The position numbers and the translations under genes are program-made. From assembly GCA_022711335.1 (NCBI GenBank), contig JAKLFF010000002.1, forward strand, positions 17,441 to 81,440: 64,000 nt of DNA, in the 5' to 3' direction. Positions within the stretch are counted from its first letter, which is position 1. Each line of letters starts with the position of its first letter. This DNA is from Patescibacteria group bacterium (lineage in GTDB: Bacteria > Patescibacteriota > Minisyncoccia > Moranbacterales > UBA2206). Shown in pieces: positions 29,830-36,067 of this stretch. Under the pieces are notes generated by a model. The model searched no databases, had not been told where the DNA came from, and saw nothing but the letters and a program-made list of their open reading frames with translations.

Positions 29830-30394
29830 ATAGAAACAAAATGGCAGAAATGAAGGGATGCTTGTCCACCTCTGGCGGAGGATCGGGCCCGCCAAAGACG
29901 GGTAAATGTTTCCACTTCGCTAGAACCGCCAAAATAATGCTTTTTACCCTATTGAATAAAATTTTGCCTCCGGTAAAATTTAATTTTTCCTTCGGAAAAA
30001 TTATTCAACAGGTTAAATTAAAATGCGTTTATCACAGGCGAAAAGAACATAAACGATACAACCGTAAACATAATTACGAAAAATATCGTAAAAATAAATC
30101 GAAAACTTTTTTTATATTTGTCGTATCTTTTCATATCTTTTTACATTATACCATTAATTGCAACCAACTACAACTTTCTTAGAAACTGCTAACTGCTAAC
30201 CTCCGACGCTCCGGCCAAAGCCGGAGGTCGGAGCTCCGAACCACTAATGAGTTCAAAAACTCATTAGTGCGTCGGAGCATATTTTTAAGAGAGATAATGT
30301 TTAGTTTATTAGTATCTCTTGGCTCAATGAATCTCTCCACTTACACCTGAGACCTATCAACCTGGTAATCTTCCAGGAAACCAGCCAATGCAAA

Positions 30395-30592
30395 GCATTG
30401 GAAGCACGAAATCCAAAATTAGAAATCCGAAACAAATTCAAATTTTAAAATCACAATTTTCAAAACATTAATAGGAATTAGTTTTGTCAGCCAGAGGCTG
30501 ATCCGCCTTTGGCGGAAATTTTGAAAATTATAATTTTGATATTGTTTAGAATTTCGAAATTCGAATTTCGAATTTCCAGTGCTTCGCACTGG
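30395..30592. repeat. IVS family B, copy 2 (helix-98 region near the 23S 3' end)
   Basis: Begins gcattggaagcacgaaatccaaaattagaaatccgaaacaaattcaaat and ends ...gaatttcgaatttccagtgcttcgcactg. Related to 33900..34070. Confidence 0.7.
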
Positions 30593-30794
30593 CGTTGCCT
30601 TATCTTGGGCGGGGCTTCCCGCTTATATGCTTTCAGCGGTTATCCCTTCCGAACGTAGCTACCCAGCAGTGCTCCTGGCGGAACAGCTGGTACACCAGAG
30701 GTTCGTTCTTCAAGGTCCTCTCGTACTATCGAAGACTTCCCTCAAGCAACAACGCCTACAGCAGATAGGAGACCAACCTGTCTCACGCATGTTT

Positions 30795-31180
30795 TTCACT
30801 TATTACTAAGTGCATTGGACTATAACTTCATCCAAAAAAATATGGATGGCTAACATTTAGTCTCTACGGGCAATTACAAACTTCAAAGAAGGGAGGAGAG
30901 AGTCTCCATTGGGAGGGCAGAAAAACCCTAAGCCATTCGGCTTTCAAAATGGACGATGCCAGGAGCCATTCGGCTAATTCCTGGAGTTCATCTTTCGCTC
31001 TCCTCTTTAAAGTTCATAATTTTCCCTCGGTATTGTCCTTTCTCAGGATTCTACCGAAATTAGTTAGCTTCACTATTAATATTACTATTAATAGCCGCCG
31101 TGTTTTTGATGTCTTATTCCTCGGATTCAAACTGTTAAATTTCCTTTATCTAAAAGCTAAAAAGCTAATAACTAAAAGCT
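30795..31180 (-). mobile_element. ORF-less group I intron-like insertion at the 23S position equivalent to E. coli ~2593
   Basis: Interrupts the conserved GGGTTCA|GAACGTCGTGAGACAG. Contains the P7-like motif GTAGAGACTAAATG (reverse complement at 30845..30858). Confidence 0.5.
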
Positions 31181-31945
31181 GTTTAACGGTTTGAACCCAG
31201 CTCGCGTACCGCTTTAATTGGCGAACAGCCAAACCCTTGGGACCTTCTCCAGCCCCAGGATGCGATGAGCCGACATCGAGGTGCCAAACCCCTCCGTCGA
31301 TGTGGACTCTTGGGAGGGATCAGCCTGTTATCCCCGGGGTAACTTTTATCTGATGATCTTCCACGCTCCTATGAGCGATGGTCGGTTCACTAACTTCCAC
31401 TTTCGTGACTGATCGACTAATGAGTCTTGCAGTAAAGCAGGCTTATGCGTTTGCACTACCGGCCCGATTTCCATCCGGACCTAGCCTACCTTTGTAAACG
31501 CCTCCGTTGCCATTTAGGAGGCGACCGCCCCAGTCAAACTACCCACCAGGCACTGTCCCCGAACTGGATAAGAAGAAAGAAGTATGAAGTAAGAATCAAG
31601 AAGAATATGCAAAAATTTTTCTTTAGAAAAATTTTTGGCTTATCTCTTTCTTCTTTATTCTTTCTTCTTAACAGTTCAGGGTTAGCGTTTAAACTCACAA
31701 AGAGTGGTATTACACTGTTGGCTCCATCTCGACCGAAATCGAGACTTCAAAGCCTCCCACCTATTCTAGGCATCATAAACTCAAACGCAATGCCAAGCTA
31801 TAGTAAAGCTCCACGGGGTCTTTTCGTCTTGCTGCAGGTCGACGGCATCTTTACCGTCATTGCAATTTCACCGAGTTCTTCGTTAAGACAGTTACCAAGT
31901 CGTTACGCCTTTAATGCGGGTCAGAATTTACCTGACAAGGAATTT

Positions 31946-32555
31946 CGCTCTTTTTTGTTAACTCTTGATCGCTCAAGAGAACGGACTATATTTTTTCGCC
32001 TTATTAGCGAATTCGGCATTTAGTCTCTGAGGATTCTAAAAATCTAGAAGATTTTCTATGATTCATTTTCTCAATCATTTTTGCAATTTTTTTCATTCCA
32101 CTTAATTTCGAATGTTCATTCTCATTCATCATTGCCACTATTTTTGCAAAAATTTTAAAATCTTCTTTTTTGGCCGTTTTCAATCGGTTTTTATCAAAGA
32201 ACGGGATTATTATTTCAGTCAAATCTTTTTTAGATCTTACGCAATAACGATATAAATTCTCGTTGTGATTATCATATCGTTTATTCACGAAAACTTTTCC
32301 ACATTTGAAAAATTTTAATAAAATTTCAAGTGATTTTTTACTTTTTTCGCCTTGCGTTACTACAAATTCCGGAAAAACTTGCCATCCAAATTTTGTAGTT
32401 TTGTTTCTAAAAAGACTAACCGAGAAACATCCTTCTCCATCAACATAACCAATTATCCAACCAATCATTTTTAGTCTTTCCTGCTGATTGTCTGGTTTTT
32501 CAAATTTACCTTGAAAAACACTGGAAACATTTTTACTGGGCATAACTTTTTATTA
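31946..32555 (-). mobile_element. group I intron in 23S (near E. coli position 1931) encoding a LAGLIDADG endonuclease
   Basis: Interrupts ...TAAGGTA|GCGAAATTCCTTGTC. Carries the Tetrahymena-like P7 motif CAGAGACTAAATG (reverse complement at 32021..32037). Confidence 0.6.
32004..32543 (-). CDS. LAGLIDADG homing endonuclease (intron-encoded)
   Basis: GYVDGEGCF matches the LAGLIDADG motif. The 179-aa ORF lies wholly inside the 23S locus. Confidence 0.75.
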   Translation of the reverse strand: MPSKNVSSVFQGKFEKPDNQQERLKMIGWIIGYVDGEGCFSVSLFRNKTTKFGWQVFPEFVVTQGEKSKKSLEILLKFFKCGKVFVNKRYDNHNENLYRYCVRSKKDLTEIIIPFFDKNRLKTAKKEDFKIFAKIVAMMNENEHSKLSGMKKIAKMIEKMNHRKSSRFLESSETKCRIR

Positions 32556-33899: not shown

Positions 33900-34070
33900 T
33901 GCTACGCATTGGAAGCACGAAATCCAAAATTAGAAATCCGAAACAAATTCAAATACTTAAATTCAAATGTCCAAAACAAGTTGTTTTAAATTTTGAAATT
34001 ATAATTTTTTAATATTGTTTCGAATTTCGATATTCGAATTTCGAATTTCCAGTGCGAAGCACTGAATCCG
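33900..34070. repeat. IVS family B, copy 1 (helix 45 of 23S)
   Basis: Replaces the helix-45 loop between GTGCCGAAGATGCGG and GTCTGGTAGGG. Ends in the hairpin cagtgcGAAGcactg. Confidence 0.7.
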
Positions 34071-34684
34071 CATCTTCGGCACTATGTTTCAGCCCCGTTA
34101 CATTTTAGGCGCAAAGCCTCTAGACTAGTGAGCTGTTACGCACTCTTTAAAGGATGGCTGCTTCTAAGCCAACCTCCTAGGTGTATAAGAAGCCTTACTT
34201 CCTTTTCCACTTAACATAGATTTTGGGACCTTAGATGGCGGTCTGGGCTTTTTCCCTTTTGAGATCCGACCTTAGCGCCGGATTTCTGACTGTCCGAATA
34301 AGTAGCTTTGGAATTCGGAGTTTGGTTGAAAACCCTACGGCGAACCGCGAATTCTCATTCAGTAGCTCTACCTCCAAAGCACATTTAACGAACGCTAGCC
34401 CTCAAGCTATTTCGGGAAGAACCAGCTATCGCCAAGCTCGATTACAATTTCTGCTCTATTCACAAGTCATCCCCCAGTGTTGTACGGCTGGTGGGTTCGG
34501 GCCTCCTTTGGGTTTTACCCCAAATTCACCCTGCTCATAAATAGCTCGCCTGGCTTCGGGTCTAGTCCATGCCATATAATCGCCCGTTAAGGCTCGCTTT
34601 CACTTTGGCTCCACAATAAAAATTGCTTAGCCTACGACATAGAACTAACTCGCTGGATCGTTCTACAAAAAGCACGCCATCACC

Positions 34685-34876
34685 CCTGTGTCTCGCGCTG
34701 CTCGCCACAGGGAATTTACAATTTTCAATTTACAATTTACAATCAATTTTCAATTTAATAATTTTTAATTTTCAAACCAACTTGTAATTGATAATTGAAA
34801 ATTGAATCATTGAAAATTTATTGATCATTGATAATTGATCATTGAAAATTCCGTGTCGAACAAAGTGAGACACGGG
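34685..34876. repeat. IVS family A, copy 2 (helix 25 of 23S)
   Basis: Identical to 33306..33497. The flanks align to E. coli CTGAAACCGTGTACGTACAAGCAGTGGGAGC, which is helix 25. Confidence 0.9.
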
Positions 34877-35267
34877 AGCTCTGACTCTTTGTTAGCATAC
34901 GGTTTCAGATACTATTTCATCCCCCTCATCGGGGTGCTTTTCACCTTTCCCTCACGGTACTGGTTCGCTATCGATCACTAAAAATATTTAGCCTTGGAAG
35001 ATAGTGCTCCCATCTTCAAACGGGATTTCTCCGGTCCCGCCCTACTTGTTTTGAGACTTAGTTCCACGGATCCATTTTCGCTTACGGGGCTTTCACCCTC
35101 TATAGCCGTTCTTTCCAGAAACGTTTGGCTAATAGAACCGCTAAAGACTCAAGGCTTTTCCGCGTTCGCTCGCCACTACTTGCGGAATCTCAGTTGATTT
35201 CTTTTCCTCCGGCTAATAAGATGTTTCAATTCGCCGGGTGTGCTTCATCACACTATGAATTCATGTG

Positions 35268-35452
35268 AAGATAATCCATTCTTCACTTTATCCAGAATCT
35301 TGCTAATTAAAATAGCCCGCAAATTTTTAATTTTTTAATTTTTAAATAATGCTCAAATTTCTAATGTTTAAAAATTAAAGCATTAAAAAAATTATTTACA
35401 AAATTAAAAATTATAAAATTTAAAAATTCTATTCTGAACGAAGTGAAGAATG
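35268..35452. repeat. IVS in helix 9 of 23S
   Basis: About 150-bp AT-rich insert bounded by the inverted repeat ATCCATTCTTCACTT / AAGTGAAGAATGGAT, between TTTCCGAATGGG and GAACTGAAACATCT equivalents. Confidence 0.75.
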
Positions 35453-36067
35453 GATTGGGTTTTCCCATTCGGAAATCTCCGGGTCAAAGGTTGCTCGTCA
35501 CCTCGCCGAAGCTTATCGCAGACTGCTACGCCCTTCATCGCTTTTTAGTGTCAAGGCATCCACCATATGCATTAGTATTACCGCTCTTACATCACGAAGC
35601 ATATAACATACAACATACAACAATTACGCATAGCACTAAATATTGTTTCGTTTTTTATGTTACATGTTTTATGCTATATGCTTCATGATTTTTAGTTAGC
35701 AGTTAGCAATCACTAATGTCGCCAACTGCGTTTTTCGCGCGGCCGCCGGTAAAGCGGTTTTACGCGATTGCAATTTCTATCCCGCCGCTCGCAAGCGGCA
35801 GAATGACCTACTTTCTAATGCTTCGTTGCAAAAAGCATTAGAAGACTAATCGCCGATATCAATTTTAGTTTCCGCAAACTCTAATTAACTTGAGTATCGC
35901 GATTAAGACCGTATTCAATTGTCAAGGTTCGCCCTAGCCGCGCGGCCGCCGTTGAGGCGGTTTTACGCGGTAACGCGGAAATACATTGATACTACTTTCT
36001 ATCAAGTAATATTAAACTATTTCTTCGCTACCCATTCGTTATTCATATAAATTCACAGTTCGCAACA

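Follow-up and report, generated by a model that had tools for sequence, protein, structure and literature searches.

Group I introns are present in other organisms at the positions that concern us here, namely L1917 in Coxiella burnetii, L1931 in Simkania and Thermotoga and L2593 in the Chlamydomonas chloroplast, where the intron carries I-CreI. Miniature palindromic repeats are known to enter RNA genes or transcripts; examples are the Rickettsia palindromic elements, the double-hairpin elements of Allomyces mitochondria and the Correia elements of Neisseria, the last cleaved by RNase III. Within the CPR, inserts of at least 100 bp occur in 82% of 23S genes, group I introns with LAGLIDADG_1 have been reported at positions 1917, 1931 and 2593, and the enzyme I-ShaI from the 1931 site was described with target cleavage and dimerisation (PMC11270868). 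The insert load of CPR genes has a mean of ~1.2–1.3 kb and a maximum of ~5.7 kb (PMC9297842). Short inserts that lack an ORF at classical IVS sites were considered "probably" RNase III IVSs (PMC11270868), and the H45 IVS of Coxiella contains an S23p ORF (PMC4990558).

The gene studied here, on a 64-kb stretch of DNA (the window), is likely the functional 23S of a Patescibacteria (CPR) bacterium, probably one of the Parcubacteria/Paceibacteria type, whose introns would be self-spliced and whose hairpin inserts would be cut out without re-ligation. It shares with the CPR rRNA inserts of Brown et al. (2015), Tsurumaki et al. (2022, PMC9297842) and Tsurumaki et al. (2024, PMC11270868) the lineage (judged by its relatives), the intron sites 1917, 1931 and 2593, a single-domain LAGLIDADG_1 and, at H25 and H45, short inserts without an ORF. 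Its insert load of ~2.4 kb is inside the published range (mean ~1.3 kb, maximum 5.75 kb), and its nine inserts are toward the upper end, the published maximum being 16 when inserts shorter than 100 bp are left out of the count. Since this architecture is the documented norm in both surveys, the rarity implied by an earlier note on this DNA is not justified, and an intron- and hairpin-bearing 23S is ordinary for the lineage. Other CPR 23S genes were 3.8–5.6 kb long with the same insert sites and no 16S within the flanks examined. Both surveys call the short inserts "uncharacterized" and leave hairpins, repeated copies, conserved arms and intergenic relatives unmentioned; what is new here is that modules of the inserts recur elsewhere, namely in further rRNA helices, in the 16S of other CPR bacteria and between ordinary genes.

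Architecture of the 23S locus

The rrlH gene of E. coli was collinear with the window 23S over its full length in BLASTN, with ~2.4 kb of extra sequence on the side of the window; when all inserts are subtracted, ~2.85 kb are left. The ~5.3-kb gene and its excess therefore stand as the earlier note had described them, and the Rfam comparison that it had proposed as a check returned a single full-length bacterial LSU match (Table 1). Alignment gaps fell at Ec131/158 (H9), Ec540/553 (H25) and Ec1163/1177 (H45), inside Ec1399-1608, at Ec1919/1932 (two introns and the 14-nt exon between them) and Ec2182/2212 (H79), and finally at Ec2593/2594 and Ec2760/2819 (H98). Three of the inserts behind these gaps are group I introns and six are long hairpins, the latter at H9, H25, H45, ~nt 1580, H79 and H98. 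Insert borders were set by mapping to E. coli and by alignment with four insert-poorer relatives, whose 23S genes are 81–85% identical to that of the window over shared columns and in which the exon sequence is well conserved.

An Rfam search of the whole 64 kb found no SSU (16S) rRNA, in line with the claim that 16S is not adjacent, and 23S and 5S would be transcribed together, apart from 16S. A perfect 20-bp inverted repeat (29634-29653 / 29926-29945) surrounds the 5S, and the 23S is flanked by a 22-nt inverted repeat, 86% complementary with arms 5494 nt apart, which we infer to be a processing stem.

Table 1. Positions of the annotated features in the window
Feature	Position	Strand	Details
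23S rRNA gene	30288..35585	-	5298 nt; Rfam RF02541, 2018.6 bits, model positions 1-2925
5S rRNA	29710..29825	-	Rfam RF00001, 85.9 bits; 462 nt downstream of 23S
Putative pre-23S flanking stem, 5' strand	35695..35716	-	inverted repeat, partner 30179-30200
Putative pre-23S flanking stem, 3' strand	30179..30200	-	partner 35695-35716
H9 insert	35264..35455	-	~192 nt; gap Ec131/158; missing in four relatives
IVS-A copy 1, helix 25	34685..34876	-	192 nt; gap Ec540/553; fold z -7.5
IVS-B copy 1, helix 45	33891..34064	-	gap Ec1163/1177; fold z -7.7
IVS-A copy 2, domain III, E. coli nt ~1575-1590	33306..33497	-	192 nt; not a classical IVS site
Group I intron L1917	32761..33008	-	after U1917; 248 nt; no ORF; Rfam RF00028, 80.3 bits
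Exon between L1917 and L1931	32747..32760	-	14 nt, AAUCGUUCUAAGGU; E. coli 1918-1931; from sequence and relatives' alignment
Group I intron L1931	31950..32746	-	after U1931; 797 nt; borders from E. coli and relatives
LAGLIDADG_1 homing endonuclease ORF	32004..32468	-	single motif, 154 aa, starts MIGWIIGYVDGEGCF; PF00961, 80.4 bits
H79 insert	31570..31698	-	~100 nt extra; gap Ec2182/2212; fold z -6.8
Group I intron L2593	30788..31185	-	after U2593; 398 nt; no ORF; Rfam RF00028, 53.5 bits
IVS-B copy 2, helix 98	30380..30591	-	gap Ec2760/2819; fold -92.4 kcal/mol, z -11.9
Intergenic AT-rich hairpin	21802..21915	-	between mreB and glycosyltransferase genes; H9-insert core, no arms; fold z -5.4
IVS-like element outside rRNA	52576..53057	-	131-aa 23S_rRNA_IVP gene 52627..53022 within 31-nt inverted repeats

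Group I introns and the LAGLIDADG endonuclease

A group I core is present in all three introns, recognized by the covariance model in L1917 and L2593 and, in L1931, by the core blocks that it shares and by its pairing with the exon. The introns claimed at 1917, 1931 and 2593 are supported by Rfam, by the alignment of relatives and by these blocks (P3-P9 in common between L1931 and L1917 in the repeat analysis). The suggested comparison with Intron_gpI (RF00028) succeeded for L1917 and L2593 and fell short for L1931, which scored only 20.6 bits (E 0.066), below the gathering score of 50. The LAGLIDADG protein of the L1931 insert and the ORF-less insert at ~2593 were likewise correctly foreseen. 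Two other claims did not hold: the ORF-bearing intron had been placed at 31946..32555, with the boundary between the neighbouring introns misplaced (Table 1 gives the real borders), and the supposed remnant ORF in L1917 had no Pfam match and no tblastn match at E<=10.

Each intron follows a U and has a terminal G. L1917 is a block of exactly 248 columns missing in four relatives, its 5' exon ending ...AACUAU and the intron ...UUAUG, and the sequence shows a P1 that has U.G at the splice site. L2593 is likewise a block of exactly 398 columns missing in four relatives, with the exon junction ...AACCGU / CGUGAGACAG and no P1 pairing settled from sequence. The P6 loop of L1931, which the stem GACUAAAAAU / AUUUUUAG closes, houses the body of the ORF. 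This intron is a variant in which a hairpin directly follows the splice site and a long segment, GGAACGAUU, pairs with exon nt 1918-1925; the extended pairing shows a compensatory change (U1924-A in the window, C1924-G in relatives), and the splice-site U.G pair has no unambiguous placement. The same hairpin-first variant with long exon pairing was found in ~15 of the CPR loci.

The introns lie in H69/H71 and beside the peptidyl-transferase centre, and all three would need to be removed, with ligation of the exons, for a working ribosome; removal would most likely proceed by guanosine-initiated self-splicing. Organellar and bacterial 23S introns share with the window, compared by position, identical insertion points near H69 and the peptidyl-transferase centre as well as LAGLIDADG-driven homing at rRNA sites, which for the window is a prediction, whereas the window L1931 differs in its hairpin-first form and long exon-pairing segment. 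The gene for this 154-aa protein was called in independent assemblies as well. We fetched 45 relatives of the enzyme from genome contigs, nearly all of them CPR MAGs, and every one of the 43 that could be mapped to E. coli 23S had the insert at or spanning Ec1931/1932. The nearest solved structures are those of the I-PanMI, I-SmaMI and I-OnuI group. The enzyme, presumably a homodimer, would cut intron-less alleles and so promote homing. Likened by description, I-ShaI of Ca. Shapirobacteria (PMC11270868) has the same 1931 site class (23IS7), a single LAGLIDADG_1 domain and group I-like flanks, in a host insert of 691 nt versus 797 nt in the window.

Hairpin inserts and their fate

Every one of the six hairpins folds with a z between -6.8 and -11.9, with stems of 50–70 nearly perfect base pairs. 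The H9 insert (-58.5 kcal/mol, z -7.4) has an AT-rich core, 35322-35430, between GC-richer arms, UUCUUCACUUCGUUCAGAAU / AUUCUGGAUAAAGUGAAGAA. The two IVS-A copies are 100% identical, with A-type arms (GUGUCUCACUUUGUUCGACAC ... GUGGCGAGCAGCGCGAGACAC) enclosing an AT-rich hairpin; copy 2 is found in the window only, among five aligned 23S genes, and falls in a 3'-strand or junction segment of the Rfam consensus, by a low-confidence alignment. B-type arms (CAGUGCUUCGCACUGG ... CCAAUGCGUAGCAUUG) enclose the AT-rich hairpin of IVS-B copy 1; the arms of the two IVS-B copies are 88–90% identical, and copy 2 has an additional GC-rich segment of ~40 nt near its tip. The arms of the H79 insert are purine-rich (5') and pyrimidine-rich (3'). 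Comparison sequences L002-L006 have an insert of divergent sequence in this position; the H79 insert, present in all near relatives, resembles a lineage-specific expansion segment. BLASTN gaps and repeats thus bear out the IVS-type inserts listed earlier at H9, H25, H45, ~nt 1580-1600 and H98, along with the two identical 192-bp IVS-A copies and the related IVS-B pair; the list had missed the sixth, H79 (31698..31570). Its placement at classical sites is right for H9, H25 and H45 and wrong for the copy near nt 1580.

RNase III-excised IVSs (Salmonella, Campylobacter, Leptospira; Coxiella) share with the window inserts the sites H9, H25 and H45, extended stem-loops and a sporadic distribution among relatives, and an S23p-family 23S_rRNA_IVP gene is present in the window's genome, within a hairpin. 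The window differs in that it has six inserts, including the non-classical ~nt 1580, H79 and H98, duplicate copies within one gene, arms common to 16S inserts of other CPR contigs, an IVP gene outside rRNA (52627..53022) and an excision that is predicted only. The six hairpins would occupy solvent-exposed positions of the 23S. An RNase of the RNase III type, specific for double strands, would most likely cut through their stems, and with no re-ligation the 23S would be left in at most seven pieces of roughly 86–615 nt.

Two rival accounts were considered. One of them, that the locus was assembled wrongly (as a chimera or through its repeats) or is a decaying rRNA pseudogene, is highly improbable. 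Repeats do perturb assembly here, as in L174 precisely the 1379 nt that separate the IVS-A copies are missing, L175 terminates within IVS-A copy 2 and L079 fuses Ec1162 to Ec2425 at a cassette. However, three independent assemblies, made from different samples, agree at 100% identity throughout the region 29500-36300 (6801 nt), and the 4.4 kb covered by a fourth match exactly, so the locus is not an assembly artefact; full-length collinearity with E. coli, the full-length model match and the well-conserved exons also argue against both versions. It is less far-fetched, and still unlikely, that the mature 23S keeps its hairpins, as bacterial expansion segments, and loses only the group I introns. 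Surface helices H9, H25, H45, H79 and H98 are sites of eukaryotic expansion segments, and every hairpin site is generally a surface helix that tolerates extension. The H79 insert was present in five of five aligned relatives, this insert and that at ~nt 1580 are outside the classical IVS sites, which counts against excision, and a search for the RNase III signature motif found none within the 64-kb window. Against retention, stems of this length and near-perfect pairing are typical substrates for any RNase III, and 23S genes with 81–85% identity lack most of the inserts, which are therefore not conserved structural parts. Insertions were also reported missing from CPR rRNA transcripts (Brown et al. 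2015, as relayed in PMC9297842). Excision of the hairpins is the likelier reading.

Modular arms and elements outside rRNA

Compared across loci, the short inserts are modular, with two conserved arm types enclosing hypervariable AT-rich hairpins. They may belong to a family of mobile elements, with conserved arms and hypervariable palindromic cores, that spread by copying themselves or by gene conversion between rRNA helices, between 16S and 23S and into intergenic DNA, with the arms, and not double-stranded RNA in general, serving as the signal for a specific factor; we hold this reading tentatively, a little short of an even chance. It would account for the identical 192-nt copies at unrelated sites of one 23S, which are paralleled in L133, where two 16S helices each hold a near-identical copy of 126 nt. 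On other contigs A-type arms occur in 23S H25, H45 and H98 and in two 16S helices, each time with an unrelated core, and their pairing, seen in 89.6% of cells compared with 27–55% when partner columns are slid, includes mismatches that are conserved as well as U-A/U.G exchanges. At least seven genomes have B-type arms, at H9, H45, H63 and H98 (those of the H45 insert in L003, L030, L037, L038 and L073/L082), and H98 of L003 holds an "empty" cassette. Cores are swapped between arm types, and one is found armless in intergenic DNA. On the other hand, no target-site duplication was found when looked for, neither a transposase nor another dedicated enzyme came to light, and A-type arms occur in only one of 45 genome loci. 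The 5' arm is invariant in part through ascertainment, 16 of its bases having been preset in the scan pattern, and core matches of 70–76% may be convergent, as AT-rich cores are low in complexity. Miniature palindromic elements resemble the inserts in having dispersed copies in intergenic DNA and structural RNA genes that form hairpins in the transcript, whereas no target-site duplication, transposase or defined family consensus was found for the inserts, and their cores, palindromes of low complexity made of tandem repeats, also vary through slippage of repeat units.

The 23S_rRNA_IVP gene (PF05635, E 8.6e-37) is enclosed by an inverted repeat that is 90% complementary. Its purine-rich and pyrimidine-rich strands are of the same type as the H79 arms, with similarity z of ~3.6 and ~9; because these repeats are low in complexity, a relationship to the H79 arms is only suggestive. 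The H9 core shows ~85% identity with the insert in H25 of L002 and 90% identity, over 108 nt, with the intergenic hairpin (21802-21907), which is kept in a 93%-identical strain minus one 8-nt repeat unit.

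The 23S rRNA locus and its setting

Rfam finds one full-length bacterial 23S rRNA gene in the window (2018.6 bits, model positions 1-2925), and its 5298 nt agree with the ~5.3 kb of the earlier note, which was made from the sequence without database searches. When three group I introns (1443 nt) and ~1.0 kb of hairpins are subtracted, ~2.85 kb is left, the usual size of a CPR 23S gene (PMC9297842). Alignment to E. coli rrlH with BLASTN gave ten collinear blocks with breaks at E. coli positions 131/158, 540/553, 1163/1177, within 1399-1608, 1919/1932, 2182/2212, 2593/2594 and 2760/2819. 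Aligning the gene by MAFFT to its four closest 23S relatives (L002, L003, L005 and L006, on other contigs; 81-85% identical to the window over shared columns) gave exact insert blocks. Blocks present in the window only are the introns L1917 (248 columns) and L2593 (398 columns), named by their E. coli 23S positions, and the hairpins at helix 9 (H9), ~nt 1580 and H98. The insertions at H25 and H45 are common to the window and some of the four relatives, and the one at H79 occurs in all five genes. All hairpin inserts previously listed (H9, H25, H45, ~nt 1580, there given as ~1600, and H98) were recovered; the H79 insert had been missed. Helix 63, at 33148-33193, is cut down to ~46 nt versus 72 nt in E. 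coli; other helices are expanded.

The absence of any 16S rRNA match by Rfam in the whole 64 kb means that 16S and 23S are unlinked within the window, as had been claimed. On the 5′ side the gene is preceded by a ~700-nt leader and then by 36287..36979, which encodes a small mechanosensitive-channel-like protein; five tRNAs lie elsewhere in the window. Inverted repeats bracket both the 23S and the 5S genes (see table) and are probably processing stems, with a separate stem for the 5S. The leader also contains a near-consensus promoter-like site (11/12, with TG); a hairpin resembling a terminator separates this site from the 23S.

Three assemblies made from different samples share the stretch from 29500 to 36300 (6801 nt) at 100% identity, and a fourth agrees fully over the 4.4 kb that it covers. 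This rules out an assembly artefact as the source of the inserts. Repeated cassettes do break or collapse assemblies. Among assemblies of this locus, L174 (about 8879-9070) is without exactly the 1379 nt that separate the two IVS-A copies and L175 has its contig end inside IVS-A copy 2; on another contig (L079, 103-210), 23S nt 1162 is fused to nt 2425 across a cassette.

The nearest relatives of both the 23S gene and the intron ORF are CPR MAGs, and the neighboring genes (mreB, ftsW/rodA, type IV pilus genes, ligA) fit a CPR genome. Inserts of at least 100 bp have been reported in 82% of CPR 23S genes, so the rarity implied earlier was overrated; the mean load is ~1.3 kb, the maximum 5.75 kb, and up to 16 inserts occur in one gene (PMC11270868; PMC9297842). 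The three intron sites and the H25 and H45 sites coincide with published ones (PMC11270868). In light of these surveys, the window's 23S is an ordinary though heavily loaded case of known CPR inserts. It is one more example of a well-documented CPR peculiarity and illustrates why assembly and rRNA annotation fail on genes of this kind. Rarity apart, the earlier interpretation was largely right, with corrected coordinates and one added insert.

Coordinates of features in and around the 23S locus and elsewhere in the window
Feature	Position	Strand	Details
23S rRNA gene	30288..35585	-	
Intron L1917	33008..32761		
Intron L1931	32746..31950		
Intron L2593	31185..30788		
LAGLIDADG_1 ORF	32468..32004	-	154 aa, single motif, starts MIGWIIGYVDGEGCF; PF00961
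IVS-A, two copies	H25 and ~nt 1580		192 nt, 100% identical
IVS-B, two copies	H45 and H98		arms 88-90% identical; H98 copy with extra GC-rich piece
H9 insert	H9		single copy
H79 insert	H79		single copy
5S rRNA	29710..29825		462 nt 3′ of 23S; Rfam
Inverted repeat around 23S	35695-35716 / 30179-30200		22 nt
Inverted repeat around 5S	29634-29653 / 29926-29945		perfect, 20 bp
Hairpin in 23S leader	35591-35689		strong, 32 bp, directly 5′ of mature end; z -10
Direct repeat in 23S leader	35736-35766 / 35939-35969		31 nt
Further 23S leader features	36219-36192; 36092-36077		
23S_rRNA_IVP gene	52627..53022	-	131 aa; PF05635, E 8.6e-37
AT-rich intergenic hairpins	938-1061, 1776-1900, 9235-9360, 9900-10070, 10400-10600, 21802-21915, 45680-45810		110-200 nt

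Group I introns and the LAGLIDADG protein

Group I introns had been proposed at sites 1917, 1931 and 2593. Two of them are confirmed by the Rfam model Intron_gpI (RF00028, gathering score 50): L1917 scores 80.3 bits, and L2593, which carries a 118-nt peripheral insertion, scores 53.5 bits. L1931 falls below the gathering score (20.6 bits, E 0.066) because most of this intron is an ORF within the P6 loop, and its core blocks were assigned manually. Outside the ORF it has the P3/P4, J6/7-P7 and P7′-P9 blocks in common with L1917, and the P3-P9 core including P7 is present in the Rfam alignments of L1917 and L2593. All three inserts are preceded by U and end in G. In L1917, a P1 helix of ACUAU/GUAGU can be read in which U1917 faces G as a U.G pair.

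The 5′ ends of 34 L1931 introns sort into two types, both seen among the first 95 nt of these introns in the CPR loci L002-L044. In the window's type, a hairpin directly after the splice site is followed by GGRACKRUU, which pairs with exon nt 1918-1925; U1924 stands opposite A in the window, L002 and L034, and C1924 opposite G in the others. This compensatory change supports the exon pairing of L1931. In the other type P1 is short and classical, with the guide GCCUUAG. A group I intron match of 76 bits adjoins a tRNA gene upstream of a different CPR 23S (L036, 140-594), consistent with the tRNA introns published in Patescibacteria (PMC13011429).

The LAGLIDADG protein noticed from the sequence is borne out (80.4 bits versus a cut-off of 23.1), while the borders of its intron have been moved to those in the table. 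In its motif, IIGYVDGEG, the catalytic position is occupied by E, its closest solved structures are the I-PanMI, I-SmaMI and I-OnuI group (best PDB matches E ~1e-33), and the same gene is also called in independent assemblies. The 'remnant ORF' proposed in the neighboring L1917 intron did not hold, since this intron is only 248 nt long and the 76-aa ORF crossing it is without a Pfam match. Searches with the LAGLIDADG protein by tblastn found nothing at E<=10 in either L1917 or L2593, in keeping with the view that the ~2593 insert has no ORF.

The protein has 45 relatives in genome contigs, the best 87% identical, and nearly all come from Patescibacteria/CPR MAGs (Parcubacteria/Paceibacterota, Portnoy-, Taylor-, Saccharibacteria and others). 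Mapping to the E. coli 23S was possible for 43 loci, and in every one of them the insert lies at or spans position 1931/1932. The 23S genes of the relatives measure 3.8 to 5.6 kb (Rfam) and carry further inserts at 1917, 2593, 2500, ~2657, H9, H25, H45, H63 and H79; no 16S was found by Rfam in the flanks of these loci. Group I introns with LAGLIDADG_1 ORFs are published at exactly 1917, 1931 and 2593 (PMC11270868; PMC9297842). One 1931-site enzyme, I-ShaI, is biochemically active and cleaves its intron-less target (PMC11270868), and the window's 154-aa protein is a candidate for the same activity.

Hairpin inserts and the predicted processing of the pre-rRNA

All six hairpin inserts form long, near-perfect stem-loops (MFE z -6.8 to -11.9 versus shuffles). 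The earlier description of two identical IVS-A copies and two related IVS-B copies was accurate. In three of the six, an extended stem-loop stands in place of the helix tip (helices 9, 25 and 45), and the other three lie at ~nt 1580, H79 and H98. The ~nt 1580 insert is off the classical IVS sites and falls in a 3′-strand or junction segment of the Rfam consensus, a placement that comes from a low-confidence alignment of a 411-nt piece.

In the processing that we propose, the pre-rRNA would be cut at the flanking stems and the three introns would self-splice. Self-splicing would be essential, as the introns break up H69/H71 and sequence adjoining the peptidyl-transferase center. The L1931 enzyme would keep or spread its own intron by homing, and a double-strand-specific RNase would excise the six hairpins, leaving a fragmented 23S. 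We consider the intron part of this scheme very probable. Excision of the hairpins from the predicted pre-rRNA is considered somewhat more likely than not, and its main rival is that all six stay in the 23S as expansion segments. At the classical IVS sites, short inserts lacking an ORF have been described as 'probably' RNase III IVSs (PMC11270868; PMC9297842). The RNase III signature E[RKT]LE[FWY][LIV]GD had no match in six frames of the 64-kb window, which is part of a genome.

Arms and cores as modules

The conserved ends (arms) of IVS-A are 5′ GUGUCUCACUUUGUUCGACAC and 3′ GUGGCGAGCAGCGCGAGACAC. The A-type consensus is GUGUCUCACUUUGUUCGACAC ... GUGGCGAGYGRAGCGAGACAC, and B-type arms read CCAGUGC-loop-GCACUGG ... 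CCANUGC-loop-GCANUGG. Scanning metagenome contigs with a 16-base A-arm pattern gave 120 matches that are mostly chance, and only ~13 of these have a partner arm and an rRNA location. The genuine matches occur in three 23S helices (H25, H45 and H98) and two 16S helices, always in rRNA-sense orientation, with near-identical arms around wholly different cores. By E. coli 16S numbering, the first of the two 16S sites directly follows nt 66 and the second falls between ~nt 440 and 505; we take these to be helix 6 and helix 17. The 16S inserts, in minus-strand locus coordinates, are at L059 767-889, L133 911-1036 and 1521-1646, and L112 7418-7554. Two helices in the 16S of L133 each contain one of a pair of near-identical 126-nt copies, which parallels the IVS-A pair of the window, and L003 has an 'empty' cassette in H98. 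The A-type arms pair in 89.6% of cells versus 27-55% with the partners slid, with two conserved mismatches and U-A/U.G exchanges opposite the U-rich 5′ arm, whose invariance is partly ascertainment because the scan pattern fixed 16 bases. An archaeal bulge-helix-bulge reading was dropped, as the mismatches do not form two 3-nt bulges 4 bp apart.

B-type arms recur at H9, H45 and H63 in L003, L030, L037, L038 (twice) and L073/L082, and those of L038 enclose the core family found in the window's H9 insert. The AT-rich H9 core (35322-35430) matches an intergenic hairpin in the mreB / glycosyltransferase gap (21802-21907) at 90% identity, and the H25, not the H9, insert of the nearest relative, L002, at ~85%. 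The intergenic hairpin persists in a 93%-identical strain, where it differs by one 8-nt repeat unit, which indicates that cores also change by slippage. The dispersed copies with terminal inverted repeats (two each of IVS-A and IVS-B, and the H9 core with hairpin 21802-21915) resemble MITE/REP-like mobile palindromic elements, but no duplicated flanks were seen at any hairpin copy, and a Pfam scan of ~48 window proteins revealed no transposase.

Tentatively, and at somewhat less than even confidence, we propose that short CPR rRNA inserts are modular, with two arm cassettes used on many 16S and 23S helices in rRNA sense, palindromic fast-evolving cores exchanged with intergenic and IVP-gene hairpins, and arms that act as an undescribed sequence-specific excision or mobility signal. 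No description of either arm type was found in a literature search of limited scope that included full-text searches on the arm sequences, and this modularity may be the new part of the analysis. Should the arms prove to be a specific signal for processing or mobility, the origin, the 16S/23S spread and the removal of most short CPR inserts would be explained, and the arms would provide a searchable signature for a class so far left uncharacterized.

Hairpins also occur outside rRNA. Flanked by a T2SS-F-like gene and a pilin gene, the IVP gene sits in an element (52576-53057) in which 31-nt inverted repeats, 90% complementary, surround it. The element resembles an ORF-bearing IVS placed in an mRNA operon. 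Like the H79 arms, its repeats appear to be of a purine-rich/pyrimidine-rich type, a likeness that is no more than suggestive, since the sequence is low-complexity. Individually folded elements and a repeat search gave at least seven more long intergenic hairpins that are AT-rich (z -3.4 to -9.2); MFE/arm-count and low-GC-island scans were too noisy for counting them. Hairpins 938-1061 and 21802-21915 fill their ORF-to-ORF gaps almost exactly, and two sequence families pair 9900-10070 with 10400-10600 and 1784-1897 with 45687-45807. These hairpins could serve as processing sites or terminators, or be selfish repeats. Separately, at 6316-9259 on the minus strand, a DUF559 gene (Vsr-like endonuclease fold) lies beside a gene for an 839-aa protein with TraG/VirD4-type coupling-protein domains, and the pair may be part of a mobile element.
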